A stretch of DNA of 64,000 nucleotides, taken from sequence record PQ390715.1, one strand, 5' to 3'. This DNA is from Escherichia phage SHEFM2K. The notes beneath the pieces were generated by a model. It did no database searches. It worked only from the letters and a program-made list of their open reading frames with translations, and was not told the origin of the DNA. A program made the translations under genes and the position numbers. Each line of letters begins with the position of its first letter. The stretch's first letter is position 1. Shown in pieces: positions 28,227 to 48,383 of this stretch.

Positions 28227-28254
28227 ATTTTATACGATTCATATAAAAAGTCAA
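28227..28254 (-). promoter_or_regulatory. sigma70-like promoter for the FamB array
   Basis: TTGACT (28254-28249) N16 TAAAAT (28232-28227) on minus strand. Confidence 0.45.
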
Positions 28255-28445
28255 TAACATTTTATTCGTAATACCCCTTTATCGAAGTCGCTAAGGTTAC
28301 CCGCCCTTTAGCCCCCTACGCATTTTGCCATAGTCCAATCCCTTTTATTTCAAAAAAGTCAAGGGATTACCTATGCATTTTTTTAACGCATAATTTTAAA
28401 AACGCCTTGACTTTTTTCTGAATCAGTACTAGATCCCTTTACGCA

Positions 28446-28655
28446 TTAATCCTTCGTTACGCTAACGATTATCTGTGTATCCCCGTAGTCCTGCCATACT
28501 TCCACGCCATCGGTCGCCCTGGTTAGTCGTGCTGTCATCTGCTTAATGGTCTTAGGCTTTAGTGGAACCTGTTGCAGTACTGTACGCATAGCATCATTGA
28601 CGTTATCATGTACGCCTGCAATAGTACCTAGAACGCTGTATACTGTATAGAACAT
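28446..28655 (-). CDS. hypothetical protein
   Basis: 69-aa ORF. Confidence 0.55.
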   Translation of the reverse strand: MFYTVYSVLGTIAGVHDNVNDAMRTVLQQVPLKPKTIKQMTARLTRATDGVEVWQDYGDTQIIVSVTKD

Positions 28656-28723
28656 ATGTATGCCCTCCTGATATAGTTAAGGCCGCTACAAGGCGGCCTA
28701 TGATGTTTGGTGATGTGTAACGC

Positions 28724-29125
28724 TTACAGTCCTAAGATAGTGCGTGCTTCGTTACGTTCCGTACACAGCTGCATGATGTGAGCAAGTAAGTCCTTGCTAA
28801 TGTATCCGGTGTTCATAGCTTCACGAATAGATACATCATAAGCACCGAACCCCGTGCGAACGATACGCACATCATTCAGGTTAGTATTATAGATACCGCC
28901 GAGATCAACGGCTTCGAATACTACATCAACAGAATATTCATTGTTGCCATCGTGGAAGTTTTCCAGTGCAATAGTATTGGATACCGCCCAACGTTTGCAG
29001 TTTCCAATGATGCGGCACTGTTCCGGTTGGATAGTACCATTACTTACAGCGTACTCCAGTGCATCTTTACCAAAAGTCCGAGCCAGTACTAAAACGTCAG
29101 CGAAGGAATTGATTGAGAAGGTCAT
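28724..29125 (-). CDS. hypothetical protein
   Basis: start at ATG 29125 (MTFSINSF) with AAGGAG SD; upstream M of track lies in 5'UTR hairpin. Confidence 0.65.
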   Translation of the reverse strand: MTFSINSFADVLVLARTFGKDALEYAVSNGTIQPEQCRIIGNCKRWAVSNTIALENFHDGNNEYSVDVVFEAVDLGGIYNTNLNDVRIVRTGFGAYDVSIREAMNTGYISKDLLAHIMQLCTERNEARTILGL

Positions 29126-29144
29126 GATAAAACTCCTTAATTTA

Positions 29145-29217
29145 GGAGGGAGAACCATTTCCCCCTCTCTATGTAAAACATTATACTTGATTCTAAGTAC
29201 TATGCAAGTACTTTTTA
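29145..29217 (-). promoter_or_regulatory. promoter plus 5'UTR stem-loop unit
   Basis: TTGCAT (29217-29212) N16 TATAAT (29195-29190), then GGGAGAAcc..ccccctc hairpin 29145-29177, then SD. Confidence 0.5.
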
Positions 29218-29547
29218 CATTTTAATACCTGGATTCAGGTAACGGTGAGATCCATATTCTGGATAGGTTTCGTTCCAGTACTGTAAATCGATAGTACCTT
29301 TCGCGTTAATCTTGTCTACCAGCTTATTCATCTTAGCGTATACTACGTCAGCATCGATGCGTTTAAAGCCAGTAGCTTTAGTGAAGTAGTAGTGATTTGC
29401 TTCACTATCATTAAGGATATACCGAGCACCGTTTGCAGTCTGTGCGATAATGATTGAGTATTCTACTTCCCGATCCAGACCGTCGATGAATACAGATGAA
29501 ACATTGGTACGGATGAAAGCTTTAACGATAGCGATTGAAGTACTCAT
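29215..29547 (-). CDS. hypothetical protein
   Basis: 110-aa ORF, AGGAG SD. Confidence 0.65.
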   Translation of the reverse strand: MSTSIAIVKAFIRTNVSSVFIDGLDREVEYSIIIAQTANGARYILNDSEANHYYFTKATGFKRIDADVVYAKMNKLVDKINAKGTIDLQYWNETYPEYGSHRYLNPGIKM

Positions 29548-29697
29548 TTTGAATCTCCTAACTTTGTGGGCCGTCGCACCATTGCCGCCCTACGAGATAC
29601 ATTATTGCAGTACTGATATACTTTGTCAATACTTTTTTATTAATAGTTTTCACTCCACCAGCAGATAGTTACTCACCGTTATTAACTATATATTTTG

Positions 29698-45245: not shown

Positions 45246-45332
45246 TTTTATTACTCCAGGTTATAGGCGGGAAGTGTTCCCGCTCTCGATGTAAAACATT
45301 ATACTCCATTAAACATAGTTTGCAAGTACTTT

Positions 45333-45599
45333 TTATTCAAGTACTGCAATCTTTTTAGTACTGTACACAGTAACGCGGTTGCCCTTGCGGTCGTGCTTTA
45401 TTTCTACCACTCGACGCGATACACTATCGGGACTTTTTAACGCCGCTAACCAGTACTGTAATGATCTGGCTGTACTACGCTTTACAATGGCCCAACGTTT
45501 ACCACGTTCCGATTGTACGCCCATATCTTTAAACGTTGCCCCGTCCTGGCGTGCGGCGATCCGAGCTTGTTCACGCGTCGCAAAATACTTAATATTCAT
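45333..45599 (-). CDS. hypothetical protein (paralog of 33279-33674)
   Basis: start at ATG 45599 (MNIKYFATRE). Confidence 0.65.
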   Translation of the reverse strand: MNIKYFATREQARIAARQDGATFKDMGVQSERGKRWAIVKRSTARSLQYWLAALKSPDSVSRRVVEIKHDRKGNRVTVYSTKKIAVLE

Positions 45600-45685
45600 G
45601 CTGTTGCCCTTATCGTTGGTGTATGAATAAAACACTATTATAAAGTACTATCGCAAAAAAATGATAGTACTTTAAATAAATTCTA

Positions 45686-45925
45686 TTACATTCCAACCAT
45701 TGCCGCACGGATCGCAGTAGTGCTATATTTGAATCCGTCCGGTGTTTTATCTTGTCCAGTCTGTTCTAAAAATAACATCATATGACGGGCCGCATCATTG
45801 CGATTAGTGCTATCGTTAATAAAGTCCTGGGCCAACCGGTATAATGATTCATCGTTATTAATCCAAAGGCTTACATTCCAATGAGTTTTGTTTTTGTGAC
45901 CTAAGAACATTTTTGATTTAGCCAT
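45686..45925 (-). CDS. hypothetical protein (paralog of 43645-43884)
   Basis: 79-aa ORF. Confidence 0.7.
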   Translation of the reverse strand: MAKSKMFLGHKNKTHWNVSLWINNDESLYRLAQDFINDSTNRNDAARHMMLFLEQTGQDKTPDGFKYSTTAIRAAMVGM

Positions 45926-46017
45926 TTTTTAATCCTCTTATATAGTGGGGAACTATTCCCCACCTGATAGAAAGTATTATACTTGTTTTAACTTAGTATG
46001 CAAGTACTTTATTAAAC

Positions 46018-46380
46018 TTATTCGTAAATTTTGCCACTGTCAGCCCATACCAGGAAACGAGGCATATTATCCCATGCATCTTGTTTTAAATTTAAACCGT
46101 GTAATACTTCTGTACTTTCCATTCCTGGTACTGGTTTACTATACACCGCGAACAATTCGCCCATGTACTGATAAGCCATCGTTAAATCACTGGCGATCAT
46201 CTTATGGATCATCGCATCAAGCATCACGGTTGCGGCGTATTGTTCACGCTTAAGCGGTAACATTGCAATAAGTTCCCGATAAGCTGAAATGTGAATCTTT
46301 ACCGTTTCAGCCGGAAGACCTTTCATCTCTTCACGGAAGTTAACCAGGTTAGCAATAATTTTAGTGATTTGAGTCGCCAT
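46018..46380 (-). CDS. hypothetical protein
   Basis: start at ATG 46380 (MATQITKI). Confidence 0.6.
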   Translation of the reverse strand: MATQITKIIANLVNFREEMKGLPAETVKIHISAYRELIAMLPLKREQYAATVMLDAMIHKMIASDLTMAYQYMGELFAVYSKPVPGMESTEVLHGLNLKQDAWDNMPRFLVWADSGKIYE

Positions 46381-46439
46381 CGTTTTAATCTCTCGTAATG
46401 TGTAGCAGGAAGTGTTCCCGCTCTCGATGTAAAACATTA

Positions 46440-48383
46440 TACGCTTTTTTCAGTACGGTGCAAGTACTTTCTACAAATACTTTTTAAAATAGTTTTCTTT
46501 CTATATAGGAGTACTATTATTCAGTACTATTATTCAGTACTATCATTCAGTACTGCAACCATCCAGGGGAACTATCTTTCTATATAGGGGAACTATCTTT
46601 CAGTACTGAATCAACCAAATCACTACTACACCCCATAAAACGGCCTCAGACGCATTCTAACGCATTAATACACCTAAGCTATACATTTGCACCATTCCAA
46701 TCATTCCAGGGCTTTACGGGCCGTTTAAACGCGTTAAATTATTTTCAATTATTTTGTTTTTAGGTATTGACTTGATCCTGAAAAAGCGTATAATTACTAC
46801 ATAGACGCGAGAAAGCGGAAACCCCAGAGGGTGCGGAATTACGCCCAAAATTCAAGATATAAAAAAAGGATACACTCCCGCACCCTAGCAGGTAAACGCA
46901 CTTTCTCAGTACTGAAATATAGTACCATAGTCCGGCCCAGGATGGCAAGCAAATTAATTAAAACTTTTTTCATCCAGGGTATTGCTTTATTTTTCCAGTA
47001 CTGTATAATAGTTCCATCAAGTCGAGAAAGACTCAAGCCCACCGGGTGCATAGTTACGCCCAAAATTCAGTACTGAAAAAATTTTTAAAAATATCCGGCC
47101 AGGTCGTTGACATTGCCCCCAGTTTATAAGATAATGATTCCAGATTCAGAAAAATCTAACTACAGATACTGCGGGGAAACTATCCCCACGCGGTAGGGGA
47201 ACTATTGGAAAAACAAAATAAAATTTTGATTTAGCCGTCTATACTTCCAGCCATCCAGAAATCTAGCCGTTTAGCCGTCTAGATGGATAGCCATCTTTAC
47301 TTCCAGACTTCTGGAGGGCTAGACATATCTACGTCCAAAATCCATCCAGGGTAACTACACCCAAAATCCGTCAGTACTATACCATAGATCTATCTTTTGA
47401 AAGGGAGTATTCAGTACTGCCATCATAGCCCTCACTATGTTACCCTAGGAGGATGAAGACTATCATGTAGTACTGAATACTGTTAGAGGGAATCCACCAG
47501 CTTGTGCTGGTGGCATAATGCTTTAGATTAAAATCAGTACTGACACCATTCTGTTAATATCAGTACTGTTATTACAATTTTCATATGAGGTTCAAAAAGA
47601 TGTACCACCACAGGAGGAACTATCTTTTCTGTACTGTCTCACGACAGGAGGTAGAGTAAATGAATTGTTCGCAGCAACTCATCTCTCTATGTAGAACATT
47701 ATACAGTACTGAATCATAATGTCAATAACTTTCTTTCACCATTCAGTACTGATATTCTTGAGAACTACCCGTCTACAAACATCATTATATCCCACAAATC
47801 ATAAACGTCCCAACGTAAATTTCAACTTTCGAAGATCCAACTTTTATTTCATAGGTACTCCAAAATTTTTAGGATCGAGATTTAGGATGGAGTACTAACC
47901 AACTTTTTGCTGGAGCCTCAAGGGGTAATTGAATTTTACCCCGAAGGGTAAAAGGGTAATTGTAATTAAGGTGAAAGTAATAATTCAGTACTAATCATTG
48001 CGTGATTACTTTTGATTACATTTGATGTAATTTGCAAAATGGAAAAGGAGCTTGGAAACTACAAAGTACGGCAGACTTCCTCTGCCTACTTAGTGGCATA
48101 TCGACACCTTCAGTACTGAATACTTTTGGGGCAGTACTGAATCCTTCCCTAGCATTCTTGAGTAATCTTGTCTATAATAATCAGTACTGAATCATATATA
48201 ATCATTCTGTGATTCTACGGTGCTCATATAAATGTTTATATATGATTACTTATGACTACCTATGATTACGGGGTTTAGCCTGGGGAGAATCCTAGTGATC
48301 GCATTTGTCCAGGCTGAATTTTAACAATTCGCCTGTACATAAAGGTTGTTCACTAGGAGCTTCCCCTGTCTCTATGTGTTTAA
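46440..48383. repeat. ORF-free iteron-rich region (candidate replication origin or control region)
   Basis: no convincing ORF; tandem agtactattattc x3 (46511-46549), ggggaactatctttc x2, tagccgtct and ccatccag repeats (47230-47350), gggtaattg repeats (47925-47960), many CAGTACTG palindromes. Confidence 0.45.
46767..46794 (+). promoter_or_regulatory. plus-strand sigma70-like promoter
   Basis: TTGACT N16 TATAAT, followed by non-coding sequence with GGGTGC/GCACCC motifs. Confidence 0.35.

Follow-up and report, generated by a model that had tools for sequence, protein, structure and literature searches.

A repeated early-promoter cassette with a stem-loop in its predicted 5' leader, akin to the promoter-early stem-loops of T4-like phages, in Escherichia phage SHEFM2K

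Why should the same promoter, followed by a stem-loop, recur before one small gene after another in an 18-kb block of the Escherichia phage SHEFM2K, and what would the stem-loop do there? The sequence analysed (referred to as the window) is a stretch of 64,000 nt of the record PQ390715.1, and the block belongs to an Asteriusvirus, i.e., a Rak2-like jumbo myophage of E. coli, with 90-98% identity to members of the genus. The module in question is arranged in the order of -35 hexamer (TTGCAA or TTGACA), 16 nt, TATAAT, 7 nt, start-region motif cAT(C/A)(A/G)AG, G-rich hairpin, Shine-Dalgarno sequence (SD), and ATG, the start-region variants being cAUCAAG, cAUCGAG, and cAUAGAG. We propose that this module is in all probability a portable early cassette of the type known as the promoter-early stem-loop (PeSL) of T4-like phages, with a stem-loop that would be kept in the sense strand and, on the predicted transcription start site (TSS), be transcribed into the leader. 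For the function of the hairpin, an mRNA 5'-end stabilizer or an insulator of the ribosome-binding site (RBS) is a plausible and still tentative reading, and the explanation as a whole, cassette and function together, we place by way of compromise at an even balance.

A covariance model of 55 positions and 9 pairs, built from 22 copies of the module, gave 22 matches in a search of the window, all of them on the minus strand between 29,130 and 46,441, with no match on the plus strand or outside that interval; a mechanical promoter scan combined with folding also returned the module repeatedly. The initial annotation of this DNA had reported more than 20 copies, which is borne out, and all eleven of its example coordinates land on module hairpins or start codons, but its wording that nearly every gene is preceded by the module was overstated: the full module is present at approximately 22 of the 41-50 genes in the block, while at least nine genes have other sigma70-type promoters and at least ten have no promoter. 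Elsewhere, the equivalent locus of phAPEC6 has 27 copies and TH47 and EC22.5-2 have approximately 24 apiece, without exception on the strand of the genes. Enrichment was also seen in a hairpin-blind test in which the 40 nt downstream of every sigma70-like site were folded: a fold of -10 kcal/mol or below (the cut-off used) was found at 25 of 44 minus-strand sites in the block versus 2 of 88 sites elsewhere or on the other strand (Fisher p = 6e-13). Ten module leaders had z-scores of -0.8 to -3.9 relative to dinucleotide shuffles. The promoters are of near-consensus sigma70 type with an AT-rich upstream region, as in PeSLs, and are preceded by an AT-rich/AGTACT element (AAAAAGTAC); on the 3' side the module ends, again as in PeSLs, with the SD and start codon of a small open reading frame (ORF) in a plastic, ORFan-rich region.

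All 22 modules lie on the minus strand and are given here from the upstream end of the block by extent, -10 hexamer, hairpin, and start codon. The first occupies 46378..46471 (-35 TTGCAC at 46463-46458, -10 at 46441-46436, hairpin 46422-46404, AGCGGGAAcacTTCCTGCT with one G:U pair, ATG 46380), followed by 45923..46011 (-10 45981-45976, hairpin 45964-45944, GGTGGGGAAtagTTCCCCACT, ATG 45925), 45243..45333 (-10 45303-45298, hairpin 45283-45267, GCGGGAAcacTTCCCGC, ATG 45245), 43882..43972 (-10 43942-43937, hairpin 43924-43904, GGCGGGGAGtggTTCCCCGCT, ATG 43884), 43219..43307 (-10 43277-43272, hairpin 43259-43240, GGGGAGAAatggTTCTCCCT, ATG 43221), 42755..42840 (-10 42810-42805, hairpin 42796-42777, TAGGGGGAgcggTTCCCCTG, ATG 42757), and 42434..42523 (-10 42493-42488, hairpin 42474-42456, AGGGGGAGcggTTCCCCCT, ATG 42436). 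The next modules are located at 40881..40974 (-10 40944-40939, hairpin 40926-40905, GAGGGGGAAacggTTCTCCTTC with two G:U pairs, ATG 40883), 40567..40655 (-10 40625-40620, hairpin 40607-40588, ATG 40569), 39041..39130 (-10 39100-39095, hairpin 39082-39063, GGGGAGAAatgaTTCTCCCC, ATG 39043), 38812..38901 (-10 38871-38866, hairpin 38854-38833, ATG 38814), 38224..38313 (-10 38283-38278, hairpin 38264-38246, AGGGGAAAcggTTTCCCCT, ATG 38226), 37788..37877 (-35 TTGACA, -10 37847-37842, hairpin 37829-37811, GGGGAGAAtagTTCTCCCC, ATG 37790), 35679..35764 (-10 TATAGT at 35733-35728, hairpin 35717-35699 with a 5-nt loop, ATG 35681), and 35406..35493 (-10 35463-35458, hairpin 35445-35426, ATG 35408). The remaining seven are 34091..34183 (-10 34153-34148, hairpin 34135-34117, ATG 34093), 31824..31917 (-10 31887-31882, hairpin 31867-31847 with two G:U pairs, ATG 31826), 31518..31609 (-10 31579-31574, hairpin 31561-31543, ATG 31520), 30971..31060 (-10 31030-31025, hairpin 31012-30992, ATG 30973), 30640..30725 (-10 30695-30690, hairpin 30679-30661, GGGGGAGatatcCTCCCCC, ATG 30642), 29991..30084 (-10 30054-30049, hairpin 30036-30016, ATG 29993), and 29123..29215 (-10 29185-29180, hairpin 29167-29146, ATG 29125).

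The anatomy of the hairpin was compiled over 92 distinct cassettes from seven loci. The stem consists of 7-10 pairs (-9 to -16 kcal/mol) and closes a loop of 3-5 nt with variable sequence (UAG, CAC, UGG, CGG, AUGG, AUGA, ACGG, AUAUC), and it has a fixed polarity, with a G-rich 5' arm (approximately 88% purine in all lineages) and a pyrimidine 3' arm; a stable G-then-C-rich stem-loop with G:T pairs beside a promoter is likewise found in PeSLs. The hairpin starts 8-12 nt past the -10 hexamer in six phage groups despite unrelated stems, a spacing kept in all 22 window copies and at nine further phage loci from the five other groups. At this common position the stems differ by genus, e.g., GGGGAGAA/UUCUCCCC in the window, GGGGAUACA/UGUAUCCCC and AGAGAUUCCA/UGGAAUCUCU in Klebsiella phage Muenster, GGGUAAGC/GCUUACCC and GACAGGAGA/UCUCUUGUC in Serratia phage BF, and GGCGGC/GCCGCC in LTH01. 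From the unrelated stems, the variable loops, and the shared position, we infer that the hairpin would work by its structure and independently of its sequence. The TSS is predicted at the A of the conserved CAT, the eighth base past TATAAT (the usual Y-1/R+1 choice), which would leave an unpaired 5' leader of 3-7 nt in 93% of the cassettes (mode 5) and make the hairpin a transcribed element of the 5' untranslated region (5'-UTR). The distance from the stem end to the AUG is 17-23 nt, and the SD and AUG are unpaired in minimum free energy folds. The 8 nt past the stem contain a mean of 1.5 T (maximum 4), and no U-tract follows the stem in any of the 92 cassettes, which rules out an intrinsic terminator in the sense strand; an efficient terminator at approximately +25 would abort the cassette's own transcript. 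An intrinsic terminator on the plus strand was rejected as well: the tail there is CUUGAUGU, and G:U pairs turn into A·C, so that fewer GC-rich hairpins can be read (19 versus 29 on the minus strand).

Is the pairing itself under selection, and in which strand? Taken from the window and from four further phages, 63 copies were aligned; 88% of the cells pair, and changes on both sides of a pair were counted in 55 cells versus 15.8 +/- 5 in column shuffles (0 of 500 shuffles reached 55); the covariation score is 0.374 versus 0.172, and the true register scored above every slid register. These figures support the compensatory changes asserted in the initial annotation and hence a selected pairing, as support rather than proof, since the copies are related to each other and the alignment was fitted to the structure by the model. 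A structure-anchored covariation count was circular (its hairpins had been picked for pairing) and was not used as evidence. One of the stem pairs quoted as an example of such changes, GGCGGGAA/TTCCCGCC at 33256-33238, is a promoter-less, T6-tailed, terminator-like hairpin and not a module. The 63 distinct hairpins contain 53 G:U or U:G pairs versus 5 A·C or C·A, and stability favours the sense over the antisense fold in 35 hairpins versus 6 (Wilcoxon p = 2e-5). Since transitions should yield G·T and A·C about equally, the pairing appears to have been maintained in the sense strand, and the strand bias speaks against a symmetric site in double-stranded DNA, against a cruciform, and against a role in antisense transcripts. 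The earlier reading of selection on RNA structure is thus favoured over a double-stranded DNA palindrome, and its outline of a repeated sigma70-type early promoter with a structure-constrained stem-loop in the predicted 5'-UTR stands. Several known RNA elements were tried and set aside: for RegB, N/boxB-like, and CsrA sites and the N4-type hairpin promoter, no loop or stem sequence is kept across copies and genera; for the antitermination RNAs lambda nut boxB and HK022 put, the loops vary by copy, no boxA/boxB-like conserved loop is present, and there is no Rfam match. Rfam at a permissive threshold over 26-50 kb gave only a chance Trp_leader match (E = 0.85).

The portability of the cassette is suggested by comparison of genomes. 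When the window was aligned with three Asteriusvirus genomes, 36 distinct homology-block endpoints were obtained, of which 22 fall in promoter modules (19% of the region, p = 4e-8) and 14 in hairpin modules (10.5% of the region, p = 8e-6). Neighbouring homology blocks often overlap at the module by up to approximately 100 bp, as expected if the single cassette of one genome corresponds to two cassettes around an extra gene in the other. The module is also present in the unrelated phages A73, W70, and LTH01 (Vequintavirinae) and nepoznato, muut, and outra (Phapecoctavirus), with cross-family identity of up to 92% over 77 nt; segments of ORF plus cassette are common to the window and such phages at 75-86% identity, or 75-92% for A73 and nepoznato, and one block ORF has relatives in rV5-like, Rak2-like, Acinetobacter, and RB49-like phages. 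A chimeric cassette in A73 lies before the counterpart of the window gene whose start is at 40883. Its 5' part, up to the last base of the hairpin, matches the cassette of the 37847 type, and its 3' part matches the leader and ORF of the 40944 type; this switch points to a crossover at the 3' edge of the stem. The cassette is common to unrelated coliphages, which seem to trade genes by way of it. The near-identical cassettes of approximately 90 bp would also act as homologous-recombination sites, at which ORFs would be added, deleted, and swapped within and between coliphage families, a role compatible with any reading of the hairpin function. The Pseudomonas phage PA5oct is a more distant member of the Rak2 clade with RNA sequencing data; the operons of its terminal repeat are tightly packed, cassettes of this kind are absent there, and it yields no TSS evidence. 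Asteriusvirus and other Rak2-like genera carry the cassette, as do Vequintavirinae and Phapecoctavirus, and the ORF that goes with it is often the same; this would extend cassette-mediated gene shuffling past the T4-like phages to exchange between families, and bears on the gain of anti-defence and takeover genes by lytic phages. This sharing across unrelated families, the coincidence with breakpoints, and the PeSL kinship (PMC2839356, PMC4122927) had been overlooked in the initial annotation.

The gene content around the modules is in agreement with an early role. The block matches phAPEC6 (approximately 95% identity, near-collinear alignment), PBECO4, 121Q, G17, and approximately 200 further records; a range of 93-97% was obtained for phAPEC6 together with other Asteriusvirus genomes, and the G+C content of the window is 34.8%. 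The block is located 1.6-12 kb from the genome end in those records that contain the terminal repeats, is annotated as a direct terminal repeat in vB_Ec-M-J, and has its equivalent in Klebsiella phage Muenster inside a 20-kb terminal repeat. Its genes are small and mostly hypothetical (the ORFs are so labelled in phAPEC6), and their homologues are scattered over rV5, RB49, Felix O1, and N4-like phages; Pfam matches, set among ORFans, are limited to an acetyltransferase of the GNAT type, a zinc finger of the DksA/TraR type, and a protein that is weakly kinase-like. An early host-takeover region in Rak2-like phages is predicted in the paper on phage CBB (PMC5259590), with which the content of the block and its small genes agree, and the block fits such a region of an Asteriusvirus jumbo phage. 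The idea of a co-regulated early regulon, put forward at the outset, fits as well, given the consensus host promoters and the position of the block in the terminal repeat of relatives. The mechanical ORF list begins several minus-strand genes too early (the start codons concerned are 29125, 40883, 39043, and 46380), false early starts being an in-frame ATG within a hairpin loop (29158) or in TATAATG (40940); 29125 and 40883 are the starts backed by an SD, and the phAPEC6 annotation concurs for 29125 (133 aa).

How, then, would a leader hairpin serve such genes? In the mechanism that we favour, the host RNA polymerase would start at the A of CAT, and the transcript would open with approximately 5 unpaired nt followed by the hairpin, an RNA structure that would act independently of its sequence and shield or insulate the short early mRNA at its 5' end. 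The 5'-end-dependent attack of RNase E/RppH on primary transcripts would be slowed, read-through transcripts cut in the AU-rich promoter segment would likewise be protected, and the SD and AUG would be kept free whichever ORF is plugged in. A stabilizer or insulator is favoured because the hairpin is tied to the start site and not to the upstream stop codon, because it follows the AU-rich promoter segment, presumed to be the RNase E-sensitive part of read-through RNA, and because the RBS is left free whatever ORF follows. If the hairpin does act on the mRNA 5' end, the cassette would be a compact, natural promoter-UTR standard of approximately 90 bp that drives and protects dozens of takeover genes, with possible use in phage engineering and synthetic 5'-UTR design.

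Several points weigh against this account. The TSS is inferred from promoter geometry only, and the predicted overhang of approximately 5 nt exceeds the 2-4 nt reported for ompA-type stabilizers. RppH needs just 2-3 unpaired nt (stated for the B. subtilis enzyme, PMC3997798). At least seven promoters in the same block have no hairpin, so that the hairpin is not required for expression, and the stem-loops of RB49 lie outside their own 5'-UTR, so that a function shared with them would not be 5'-end protection. The constant spacing within one genome could have been inherited through cassette copying instead of being selected, the covariation statistics rest on kindred copies and a model-fitted alignment, and the intergenic breakpoints could reflect selection for viable gene-sized indels and not a recombination mechanism.

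In the alternative that fares best, the stem-loop is a 3' element of the upstream unit (an attenuator, a weak terminator, or a 3' exonuclease barrier for read-through RNA), as PeSLs have been read, and its position relative to the promoter is incidental. One RB49 stem-loop lowered lacZ expression as strongly as rrnB T1 (PMC2839356); the stem-loop stands upstream of, inside, or downstream of the promoter depending on the phage, which suits a role that needs only an intergenic position; half modules at 43625 and 33256 join the same stems to T-runs; and the sense-strand G:U bias agrees equally well with such an element. It is nevertheless an unlikely reading in our judgement: a U-tract is present in 0 of 92 cassettes, true T-run terminators occur separately in the block, and a hairpin at approximately +6 to +25 would have the same attenuating effect on the transcript of the cassette itself. 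Approximately 70 nt of AU-rich, RNase E-prone promoter would separate the hairpin from the upstream stop codon, a poor site for a 3' protector, and the hairpin start is fixed at 8-12 nt past the -10 hexamer in six phage groups with unrelated stems.

An improbable alternative is that the hairpin is a site for a phage or host protein (antiterminator, translational repressor, or endoribonuclease) that switches the early regulon. A single structure before many early genes would suit a common regulator, the E. coli phages have in common a well-conserved GAA-loop-UUC beside a G/C run, and the variant GGGGAGAAUAG resembles the T4 RegB consensus GG*AGRAYARAA (PMC3014915). Loops are variable, however, and stems unrelated across genera, too varied for a shared sequence-specific binder; GGAG is missing from many copies and, where present, lies within the stem, where base-pairing protects against RegB; no boxA/boxB-like conserved loop and no Rfam match was found, and no RNA-binding protein was evident among the ORFs scanned. 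A further view, which we consider quite improbable, is that the hairpin is a "self" tag shared by early mRNAs, i.e., a common expression standard of unrelated virulent enterobacterial phage families. Such a tag would exempt the transcripts from phage-induced or redirected RNase activity during host shut-off, or else bring in a factor; with the standard in common, an ORFan cassette passed from one family to another by recombination at the cassette would be expressed at once, amounting to an integron-like gene-cassette economy among lytic phages.

Very unlikely, too, is a role at the level of transcription initiation, with the G-rich initial transcribed sequence, or a DNA hairpin in the non-template strand, setting how the polymerase pauses at, or escapes from, very strong consensus promoters. 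The purine content of the 5' arm directly past the start site in all lineages accords with this and resembles T5 N25, whose initial transcribed region is rich in purines; a non-template DNA hairpin would suit the strand bias as well. Against it, the RB49 stem-loops are G-first too, though upstream of the start, a hairpin of 19-22 nt exceeds the transcription bubble of 12-14 nt, and the complementarity of the pyrimidine arm is left unexplained. That the inverted repeat matters as DNA only, as extra homology or a cruciform aiding cassette recombination with no RNA function, is hardly credible: breakpoints do cluster in the cassettes and the A73 chimeric junction lies at the hairpin edge, but the excess of G:U over A·C (53 versus 5) and of sense over antisense stability means that pairing is kept in one strand at the cost of the other, which is not what a cruciform or a symmetric protein site would allow; a stem of 7-9 bp is short for the extrusion of a cruciform, and recombination homology needs no inverted repeat.

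Other promoter and hairpin types are interspersed with the modules on the minus strand. Two long-leader variants have an ORF-less leader (GACGGGGAACGAAACAAGTAACCCCGTTAAGTAGTCCAGGAGTAAGACATACG) with tandem promoters, the second promoter following the leader, and are 84-89% conserved in the unrelated phage A73. The one at 44681..44766 (leader region 44610-44789) has a module-type promoter and a 6-bp stem (ACGGGG..CCCCGT) with an 11-nt loop, and gives a weak covariance-model match; the second copy, at 34548..34631 (leader region 34477-34610), is 89% identical to A73 and is followed at 34493 by another promoter, which resembles a hairpin-deleted derivative. Hairpin-less promoters are exemplified at 40344..40406 (TTGACA-17-TGGCATAAT, leader AUCAAGACAACUAAGAGG, AUCAA...), and others have their -10 hexamers at 44626, 37535, 37265, 36151, 34493, and 33724. 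A half module at 43606..43640 has a decayed -10 (cagtactgTAACAAT), no -35, and the hairpin GGCGGGGAATGGTTCCCGCC followed by TTTATTG; the half module or terminator at 33238..33280 has ACTTGCA without a -10, and the hairpin GGCGGGATCAGTTCCCGCC followed by T6. Composite terminator-promoters are located at 29742-29777, 32004-32038, 34723-34758, and 38399-38434, in each of which a 12-bp hairpin (AAAGGGATTGACTCCGGTCAGTCCCTTT) holding the -35 is followed by a T-rich stretch and TATTAT, the classical PeSL geometry of a stem-loop over the -35. Terminators with T-runs exist in the block apart from the modules, and a terminator scan picks other hairpins of the block and not the modules.

The composite terminator-promoters drive small non-coding units carrying the motif CCCAYNGGGTGC. 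Ten such units were found, each with a sigma70 promoter, approximately 27 nt, the invariant CCCAYNGGGTGC, approximately 40 nt, and usually a T-run; the motif is located at 44930, 38372, 36707, 34701, 31976, and 29720 on the minus strand and at 42923, 44862, 46822, and 47038 on the plus strand. Behind the same promoters, Serratia phage BF and Salmonella phage Munch also carry this motif (AACCCTATAGGGTGC or AACCCACAGGGTGC). RNAalifold of the ten units gave only a 4-bp invariant CCC/GGG hairpin with no covariation, and Rfam gave no match; the units could be phage small RNAs or a protein-binding site. Two highly expressed non-coding RNAs are carried in the terminal repeat of PA5oct.

The sequence AGTACT is the top hexamer of the window, with 274 copies versus 21.6 expected from base composition (12.7-fold), and CAGTACTG has 64 copies versus 0.65 expected. 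AGTACT sites occur in coding DNA and in promoters, e.g., at 46510-46560, in promoter spacers (cAGTACTGTATAAT), and just 5' of the -35 (AAAGTACTTGCA); they are missing from the 16-20 kb and 24-28 kb bins of the window and present in the promoters of Muenster, BF, and Munch too. No account of this abundance was found in the literature. At the upstream end of the early block, the non-coding stretch 46440-47320 contains tandem AGTACTGAATAAT units with repeated GATAGTTCCCCT and GGATGGCTGGAAGTATAGACGGCTAAA, and may serve as an origin, as a signal for packaging, or to mark a repeat boundary. On the plus strand, an intergenic repeat unit (hairpin GCCAGTAC..GTACTGGC, T-run, TATTAAATATAGTATAAT, AAAGGAGG) at 55653-55675, 58047-58065, 59257-59275, and 61739-61759 precedes repeated genes annotated as RCC1-like in phAPEC6.

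Among known systems, the predicted RpoD-like early promoters of the Rak2-like phage CBB (PMC5259590) and of rV5 (PMC3606486) have the same consensus sequences and UP-like elements, and are concentrated where short hypothetical genes lie inside the terminal repeat or close to it; both papers list promoters and terminators, and a stem-loop past the start site is mentioned in neither. The literature covered, which is incomplete, yielded no earlier account of a hairpin past the TSS in phages of the rV5, phAPEC8, or Rak2 type. The module hairpin resembles an intrinsic terminator in its GC-rich stem of 7-10 bp and loop of 3-5 nt, and T-run half modules of the same stem type occur in the block, but it lacks the U-tract, lies past a promoter, and stands directly before an SD. 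The classical 5' stabilizer hairpins of E. coli, as Emory, Bouvet and Belasco are said to have found in 1992, lie within approximately 2-4 nt of the 5' end, whereas the predicted overhang in the window is 3-7 nt with a mode of 5. The ompA and papA mRNAs, listed among those with 5'-terminal stabilizer stem-loops (PMC3997798), are otherwise alike in having a sequence-independent, 5'-proximal leader hairpin followed by an accessible RBS.

The closest likeness is to the PeSLs of the T4-like phages RB49/phi1, PST/T4, and nt-1/KVP40 (Arbiol et al. 2010, PMC2839356; Comeau et al. 2014, PMC4122927), in which sigma70-type early promoters are joined to polyG/polyC stem-loops with G:T pairs before ORFans in hyperplastic regions. 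Promoter activity was shown for them, a terminator or attenuator role was proposed, and they were implicated in recombinational shuffling and mini-circle formation (PMC2839356, PMC4122927). The window modules have the same components (AT-rich upstream region, near-consensus sigma70 promoter, G-run/C-run stem-loop with G:T pairs, SD, and ATG); they precede small ORFans in a plastic region, and the points at which close relatives part by indel or replacement coincide with the cassettes; and the window itself has the classical stem-loop-over--35 geometry at 29777, 32038, 34758, and 38434. With RB49 they have in common the -35 context (AAAAAGTAGTTGACA) and the CATCAA/CATCGA start motif, but direct homology was rejected, as the module covariance model gave no match at the RB49 locus (best E = 0.86). 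The geometry also differs: six of the seven RB49 stem-loops read sit in the -35/-10 spacer or over the -10, outside their own transcript, those of PST lie just upstream of the promoter, and both are read as terminators, whereas the stem-loop of the window lies past the predicted TSS, has no U-tract, and is not the terminator upstream of or within the promoter that marks a PeSL; only a minor RB49 subclass, "downstream of the -10", is comparable. The carriers differ too, being Rak2-like jumbo phages, Vequintavirinae, and Phapecoctavirus and not Straboviridae. If the account given here is true, a PeSL stem-loop is not always a terminator. The module is a variant of the PeSL cassette in which the 5'-UTR placement and the phage groups are new, as are the sharing of the cassette across families and the strand-specific selection.

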